Origin: Escherichia coli
GTDB taxonomy: Bacteria > Pseudomonadota > Gammaproteobacteria > Enterobacterales > Enterobacteriaceae
Direction: 5' to 3' (one strand)
Length of the DNA: 64,000 bases
Assembly (NCBI RefSeq): GCF_003334255.1
Contig: NZ_QOWU01000015.1
In this document: in pieces, positions 8,702-9,173 of the stretch
Numbering within the stretch: position 1 is the stretch's first letter
Layout: each line of letters begins with the position of its first letter
Notes under the pieces: model-generated
Told to the model about the DNA's origin: nothing
Database searches by the model: none
What the model saw: the letters and a program-made list of their open reading frames with translations, nothing else
Program-made: the position numbers and the translations under genes

Positions 8702-8815
8702 TGTCTGTAAATCACGACAATGGGTGGTTTGCCGTGTCGCTTTCTGGCGACACTTAACTCATTGATTTTAATATTATCTAATAAGTTTATCTTAAGTTGT
8801 CTCTTTTTAGCGACA
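8702..8815. promoter_or_regulatory. Three TGTC-N10-GACA sites (8702..8719, 8735..8752, 8798..8815), consistent with GlrR activator binding sites upstream of glmY
   Basis: Three exact TGTC-N10-GACA inverted repeats seen in the sequence, upstream of a sigma54 promoter. Confidence 0.55.
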
Positions 8816-8904
8816 CAGTGGCTGATTTACATTCAAACAGCGGAGGAGACATAAACCCCTCAAAGCAACGTATAATCAGTACGTTACCAAACTATTTTCT
8901 TTAT

Positions 8905-8920
8905 TGGCACAGTTACTGCA
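8905..8920 (+). promoter_or_regulatory. sigma54 promoter (TGGCAC-N5-CTGCA) of glmY, overlapping a sigma70-like -10 (cataat)
   Basis: GG at 8906-8907 and GC at 8918-8919 with canonical -24/-12 spacing; start of the GlmY sequence about 12 nt downstream. Confidence 0.65.
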
Positions 8921-8931
8921 TAATAGTAACC

Positions 8932-9115
8932 AGTGGCTCATTCACCGACTTATGTCAGCCCCTTCGGGACGTGCTACATAAAATACGAATGACGCACAAC
9001 AAGGTGCCTGCCGTCCAACTTCTGATATCAGCGTAGCTATATCAACCATCGGGCGAAACGTCGAGTTAGGCACCGCCTTATTCCATAACAAAGCCGGGTA
9101 ATTCCCGGCTTTGTT
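8932..9115 (+). ncRNA. glmY: Small RNA GlmY (tke1/sroF), activator of glmS via GlmZ/RapZ
   Basis: Starts AGTGGCTCATTCACCGACTTATGTCAGCCCC; ends in hairpin aaagccggg...cccggcttt plus U-tract (9089..9117); position between purL and glrK. Confidence 0.8.
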
Positions 9116-9173
9116 GTATCTGAACTTCCCCTCGGTTAGCATCAGGCTATTCGCGTCTGACGAGAGTAACACC

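Follow-up and report, generated by a model that had tools for sequence, protein, structure and literature searches.

In the NtrC-glnAp2 and NifA-nifH systems, activator sites lie more than 100 bp upstream of a -24/-12 promoter, an IHF site is found between them, and the activators, like GlrR, are built of receiver, AAA+, and HTH domains. The glmY locus of E. coli, which was characterised by experiments dating from 2007-2011 onward and carries an annotation in the K-12 reference genome, is likewise arranged, but differs from these systems in that its product is an sRNA instead of an mRNA and in that a sigma-70 promoter overlaps the sigma-54 promoter and shares its start nucleotide. The gene, b4441, was formerly known as sroF or tke1, and its promoter in E. 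coli K-12 was reportedly described by Reichenbach and co-workers in 2009.

A GlrR motif of the TGTC-N10-GACA type has been published; GlrR binds three copies of it and activates the glmY sigma-54 promoter, and the overlapping sigma-70 promoter is weaker, uses the same start nucleotide, and is partly repressed by binding of sigma-54 (Gopel et al., 2011). Reporter fusions have been tested in glrR, rpoN, and ihf mutants (Gopel et al., 2011; Khan et al., 2020), and a published glmY'-lacZ fusion without the sigma-70 -10 element depends on glrR and rpoN. The homologous sRNA gene glmZ (RF00083), which belongs to the same clan (CL00011), has a like promoter design in Yersinia, Serratia, Hafnia, and Budvicia-type Enterobacterales; in E. 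coli itself, control of glmZ by sigma-54 and GlrR has been lost (Gopel et al., 2011). GlmZ carries the base-pairing region for glmS and is the target of RapZ/RNase E, whereas GlmY is a decoy.

We compared with these systems a locus in a stretch of E. coli DNA of 64,000 nucleotides (64 kb; "the window" denotes this whole stretch). A first-pass annotation, made from the sequence alone, had read the locus as glmY with a sigma-54 promoter and three activator sites, and had called it established biology that is useful as an internal control, a view that we share. We conclude, with a probability of about 0.97, that the locus is E. coli K-12 glmY with its complete published control region. Both the locus and the control region are already known, and nothing in them is new.

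Identity and genomic setting of the glmY locus

Positions 8272..9672 of the window are the exact reverse complement of NC_000913.3 positions 2690600-2692000 (1401 nt) of E. coli K-12 MG1655, and coordinates were converted by the relation that the NC_000913.3 position equals 2700272 minus the window position. By this conversion, the reference ncRNA feature glmY (b4441, 2691157..2691340, minus strand, 184 nt) falls exactly on the glmY interval in Table 1, and alignment to K-12 glmY, which the first-pass annotation had proposed as a check, gave 100% identity. A 601-nt glmY query was likewise 100% identical to K-12 MG1655 and to many other strains. The region was present in all complete E. coli genomes searched (5426/5426), with 90-100% identity and always on the chromosome; one of the 5426 contains two copies of the 601-nt region, and the rest contain a single copy. 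Differences from the K-12 reference that would make the glmY copy in the window unusual were sought in the 1401-nt comparison and in the E. coli genome search, and none was found. No difference separates the window from K-12 MG1655 glmY (b4441, RF00128) in the RNA bounds, activator sites, sigma-54 17-mer, CATAAT hexamer, IHF-like sites, or neighbouring genes; the window presents the locus in the reverse complement of the reference orientation.

Table 1. Coordinates of the features of the glmY region in the window.
Feature	Position	Strand	Sequence	Basis and remarks
purL CDS	4729..8616			Upstream of the glmY control region
purL intrinsic terminator	8675..8696	+		Hairpin and T-run; upstream border of the control region
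GlrR/QseF activator binding site 1	8702..8719	.	TGTCTGTAAATCACGACA	Exact TGTC-N10-GACA; -230 from the glmY 5' end
GlrR/QseF activator binding site 2	8735..8752	.	TGTCGCTTTCTGGCGACA	Exact TGTC-N10-GACA; -197
Distal IHF-consensus site	8755..8767	-	TAACTCATTGATT (+ strand)	Exact match to WATCARNNNNTTR on the - strand
Mechanical ORF	8797..9036	+		79 codons, TTG start; covers activator site 3 and the promoter and extends 105 nt into GlmY
GlrR/QseF activator binding site 3	8798..8815	.	TGTCTCTTTTTAGCGACA	Exact TGTC-N10-GACA; -134
Proximal IHF-consensus site	8874..8886	+	AATCAGTACGTTA	Exact WATCARNNNNTTR match; between activator site 3 and the promoter
Sigma-54 promoter	8905..8920	+	TGGCACAGTTACTGCA	Pattern match, TGGCAC-N5-CTGCA; GG at -26/-25 and GC at -14/-13 from the annotated 5' end
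Sigma-70 -10 hexamer	8919..8924	+	CATAAT	Read from the sequence; overlaps the sigma-54 -12 GC element
glmY (b4441)	8932..9115	+		184-nt primary transcript; exact NC_000913.3 ncRNA mapping; Rfam RF00128
glmY intrinsic terminator	9090..9115	+	AAAGCCGGG-taatt-CCCGGCTTT, then GTTGT	Hairpin at 9090..9112; U-rich tail
glrK/qseE, sensor histidine kinase	9174..10601	+		RefSeq annotation; TTG start, 475 aa
qseG (yfhG), lipoprotein, two-component system accessory	10766..11479	+		NCBIfam NF007997, 359 bits (cut-off 234); annotation
glrR/qseF, sigma-54-dependent response regulator (enhancer-binding protein)	11469..12803	+		NCBIfam NF011695 equivalog; annotation

The gene order in the RefSeq annotation is purL - glmY - glrK - qseG - glrR - glnB, and annotation together with NCBIfam matches bears out the earlier placement of glmY directly upstream of glrK-yfhG-glrR. 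GlrR matched its equivalog model over the full length with 982 bits (cut-off 763), and also matched the NtrC, ZraR, and AtoC models below their cut-offs, which marks it as kin to other sigma-54 activators. Histidine-kinase models matched GlrK/QseE only under their equivalog cut-offs. The end of qseG and the beginning of glrR share 11 nt, an arrangement that fits translational coupling inside a qseE-qseG-glrR unit. A longer mechanical glrK ORF opens at a TTG at 9111, within the glmY terminator; we rejected this start as an artefact of an ORF caller that takes the first start codon after a stop, and retained the annotated TTG.

Five other Rfam matches above the gathering score were found in the window, namely ryfA (46023..46326, minus strand, 315 bits), IS128 (46458..46666, minus strand, 260 bits), the iscRS stability element (38539..38648, plus strand, 138 bits), sroE (59495..59586, plus strand, 117 bits), and naRNA4 (37751..37822, plus strand, 72 bits), all of which are expected on a stretch of the K-12 chromosome. 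The glmZ gene is absent from the 64-kb window.

Activator sites, IHF sites, and promoters upstream of glmY

For comparison across the Enterobacterales, a species-dereplicated genome collection was scanned with a 15-base pattern, GCTCATTCACC-N4-TATG, taken from the 5' end of GlmY. Because this pattern lies inside the RNA, conservation of the promoter is an independent observation. The scan gave 120 loci, of which about 70, matched by chance in unrelated phyla, were set aside. Also left out were a locus whose upstream sequence was too short (L015), another chance match (L011), and three glmZ loci. The 46 glmY loci that were kept, all from Enterobacterales and with sufficient sequence upstream, are biased to relatives that retain this 15-base segment, and they include members of Escherichia, Citrobacter, Enterobacter, Klebsiella, Kluyvera, Kosakonia, Pluralibacter, Pantoea, Erwinia, Mixta, Serratia, Rahnella, and Yersinia. 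In a MAFFT footprint covering -270..+200, the conserved blocks were the activator half-sites, both IHF-like cores, the TGGCA and TGC elements of the promoter, and the GlmY body; the rest of the intergenic DNA varied, as did the N10 spacers.

The three glmZ loci were candidates for glmY that Rfam assigned instead to GlmZ_SraJ with 127-136 bits; one is from Hafnia paralvei (L045, 1656..1865, minus strand) and two are from Budvicia (L047 and L058, about 456..666 and 857..1067, plus strand). Upstream of each is a TGGCAC-N5-nTGCA element together with TGTC-N10-GACA-like sites 63 bp apart. These predicted glmZ promoters match the published group in which GlrR and sigma-54 control glmZ as well.

The first-pass annotation had listed three TGTC-N10-GACA inverted repeats, and all three are present, as exact matches, within the stretch that it gave. 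They are the only exact matches in the 64-kb window, where shuffled sequence contained 0.77 matches on average. Start-to-start distances are 33 and 63 bp, or about 3 and about 6 helical turns. Consequently, the description of these repeats as evenly phased holds for their helical phase and fails for their spacing, which is uneven.

We considered whether the three palindromes arose by chance or serve another regulator, for example in control of purL or glrK. The motif specifies only 8 bases, and three matches occurred somewhere in 2/100 shuffles of the window. However, a stretch of 114 bp immediately before the sigma-54 promoter and downstream of the purL terminator holds all three, and three matches within 150 bp were obtained in 0/400 first-order Markov simulations of the window (two in just one simulation). 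The half-sites are the most conserved intergenic columns across the 46 species, with fixed spacing, a like arrangement precedes glmZ in Hafnia and Budvicia, and binding of GlrR to the sites upstream of glmY is published. An origin by chance or a role for another regulator is very improbable, and we read the palindromes as GlrR/QseF activator sites of glmY.

The geometry of the GlrR sites is held more tightly than their distance to the promoter. Three sites with at most one mismatch were found in 39/46 relatives and two in the other 7/46, and in all 39 three-site loci, site 1 and site 2 are 31-33 bp apart and site 2 and site 3 are 62-64 bp apart. In the alignment of 47 sequences, conservation of the site 1 half-sites is 95% or more, and the left half-site of site 3 is TGTT in many relatives. 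Relative to the RNA 5' end, site 3 is found anywhere from about -120 to about -160 among the relatives. Rigid spacing of the sites, with the promoter at a varying distance, agrees with the published model of IHF bending and a fixed GlrR oligomer. In E. albertii, the sister species closest to E. coli (L013, upstream of position 9953), the -24 element is TGGCAT, both site 1 and site 2 end in GACG, and a third activator site within one mismatch was not found; judged from these bases, the enhancer of this species looks somewhat degenerate.

Two IHF-consensus sites bracket activator site 3. The core columns of both predicted sites are conserved in the 47-sequence alignment, where the proximal core reads AATCA...TTA. 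Gopel et al. (2011) likewise describe two IHF-like regions that flank the third activator site (ABS3), and report that IHF is essential for the glmY sigma-54 promoter and is not essential for the sigma-70 promoter, and that mutation of one IHF-like site ("site 1") abolished sigma-54 activity. The first-pass annotation mentioned neither the two IHF sites nor the 3' processing of GlmY to 148 nt; its interpretation is unchanged by them.

The sigma-54 promoter had been called textbook. It is present and conserved, but it carries one mismatch to the consensus TGGCAC-N5-TTGCA, and its GG and GC doublets, which are 10 bases apart, lie a single base upstream of the nominal -24/-12 positions. A pattern allowing one mismatch had at least one match in 88/100 shuffles, and is by itself not significant in a 64-kb window; consequently, we relied on position and conservation instead. 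In 46/46 relatives, counting back from the inferred 5' end, the -24 GG falls at -26 or -25, and the TGGCA and TGC columns were at least 95% conserved in the footprint alignment. Loss of promoter elements in related genomes, which the first-pass annotation had named as an observation that would count against it, was not seen. Moreover, the 17-mer TTGGCACAGTTACTGCA, entered for glmY in a published genome-scale table of E. coli sigma-54 binding sites, is identical here.

The sigma-70-like -10 element that had been noted as overlapping the sigma-54 promoter is likewise in place. CATAAT is the characterised sigma-70 -10 element of glmY (Gopel et al., 2011), and its presence in 21/46 relatives agrees with the published restriction of this promoter to a subset of genera. 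A generic sigma-70 scan of 8500..9300 detected no full promoter; this result reflects a -35 region too weak for the scan rule and is not evidence against the published promoter. Just upstream of the -24 element, the run TTTTC (8895..8899, within 8893..8899) is 60-90% conserved in the footprint and falls outside all the named elements. This T-run may be part of the proximal IHF flank or of a weak sigma-70 -35 region.

The GlmY RNA, its terminator, and overlapping ORFs

The RNA starts at 8932 with the sequence AGTGGCTCATTCACC. A search of Rfam, proposed earlier as a check, matched GlmY_tke1 (RF00128) with 146 bits (gathering threshold 33, E = 1.5e-32) at 8932..9079, over positions 1-163 of the 163 in the model. 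This span of 148 nt is equal in length to the published processed form; the primary transcript has 184 nt, and the 3'-processed 148-nt form is active in vivo (Gopel et al., 2014). The predicted fold of GlmY consists of two multi-helix domains and a terminator hairpin, with a minimum free energy of -66.7 kcal/mol (z = -5.7 relative to dinucleotide shuffles). Compensatory double changes were found in 6/29 consensus pairs among 47 sequences, where the basal helices were assessed and the apical loops aligned poorly; examples are U-A to A-U in 14 sequences and A-U to C-G in 10.

The terminator hairpin is kept in close Enterobacteriaceae with compensating changes in its stem (alignment columns 190-215), and its GC-rich core stem reaches 14 bp in the minimum-free-energy fold. 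A generic terminator scan detected the purL terminator and missed that of glmY, because the maximal stem draws in three T's from the start of the tail, an artefact of the scan rule. The RNA body and terminator had been read correctly from the sequence, except that the RNA had been extended to 9117 and was 2 nt too long.

The first-pass annotation had dismissed as spurious the mechanical ORF that begins just before activator site 3 (8797..9036). The alternative is that this ORF encodes a real small protein and that the RNA annotation should come second to it. The frame is uninterrupted in the window and in 5/46 relatives, four of them Citrobacter and one Pantoea. In-frame stops interrupt it in the other 41/46, which is decisive against it. 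Among these 41 are E. albertii and a second E. coli strain; in the latter, CTG replaces the TTG start and codon 12 is a stop. Amino-acid conservation in the C-terminal half reflects the conserved nucleotides of GlmY, the N-terminal half, over the promoter, shows no amino-acid conservation, and the start codon lies upstream of the only mapped transcription start. No NCBIfam family matched the ORF. Neither NC_000913.3 nor any of 25 RefSeq E. coli genomes, chosen at even steps from the closest match down to the poorest, has a CDS annotated at its position. We give almost no credence to a small protein here; the sequence comparison indicates that the ORF is spurious and not a gene, and that glmY is the gene at this position. 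A second ORF, antisense to GlmY and its terminator (8942..9172, minus strand, 76 codons, GTG start), had no NCBIfam match and is probably also spurious.

The PGAP RefSeq E. coli records that were examined (NZ_CP032667.1, and the 25 sampled genomes, H16-H40) have no feature at glmY, where NC_000913.3 has b4441. The lack of a glmY feature in such records helps to explain why an ORF caller supplied the spurious ORF, and shows how spurious ORFs can survive in pipelines that consider coding sequences only. The value of this locus is as a positive control: reading of the raw sequence recovered the layout of enhancer, sigma-54 promoter, sRNA, and terminator, with coordinates that were essentially correct.

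The GlmY regulatory circuit and read-through into glrK

Published work offers a mechanism into which these elements would fit. The sensor kinase GlrK/QseE, helped by the lipoprotein QseG, would phosphorylate the enhancer-binding protein GlrR/QseF, and GlrR~P would bind the three upstream sites while IHF bends the DNA between. The bend would allow GlrR to touch sigma-54 RNA polymerase in the closed complex, and the ATPase of GlrR would then bring about the open complex. At low glucosamine-6-phosphate, the 148-nt form of GlmY would accumulate and sequester the RNase E adaptor RapZ, by which the homologous sRNA GlmZ would be spared, pair with glmS mRNA, and lead to more GlmS. The decoy function of GlmY, in which sequestration of RapZ spares GlmZ and activates glmS, has been reviewed (Gopel et al., 2014). 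RapZ free of GlcN6P stimulates autophosphorylation of QseE, which leads to QseF~P and to glmY transcription, and binding of GlmY to RapZ acts as negative feedback on this stimulation of QseE/QseF (Khan et al., 2020).

An extension of this reading of glmY, not strictly a rival to it, is that the K-12 glmY promoters also drive glrK-qseG-glrR by read-through of the terminator, forming a positively autoregulated glmY-qseEGF operon. Only 58 nt separate the 3' end of glmY from the glrK start on the same strand, and in Proteus mirabilis, glmY-qseE-qseG-qseF is reported as one operon. Against this extension, the glmY and glrK genes of E. coli K-12 are transcribed independently (Gopel et al., 2011), and the GC-rich core stem of the glmY terminator is followed by a U-rich tail. 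A shared operon in K-12 is therefore unlikely, and it is a little more doubtful still that a fraction of the GlrR-activated K-12 glmY transcripts reads into the genes downstream. If such read-through did occur, the sRNA gene would also serve as leader to an autoregulated operon, an arrangement like that reported for Proteus mirabilis.
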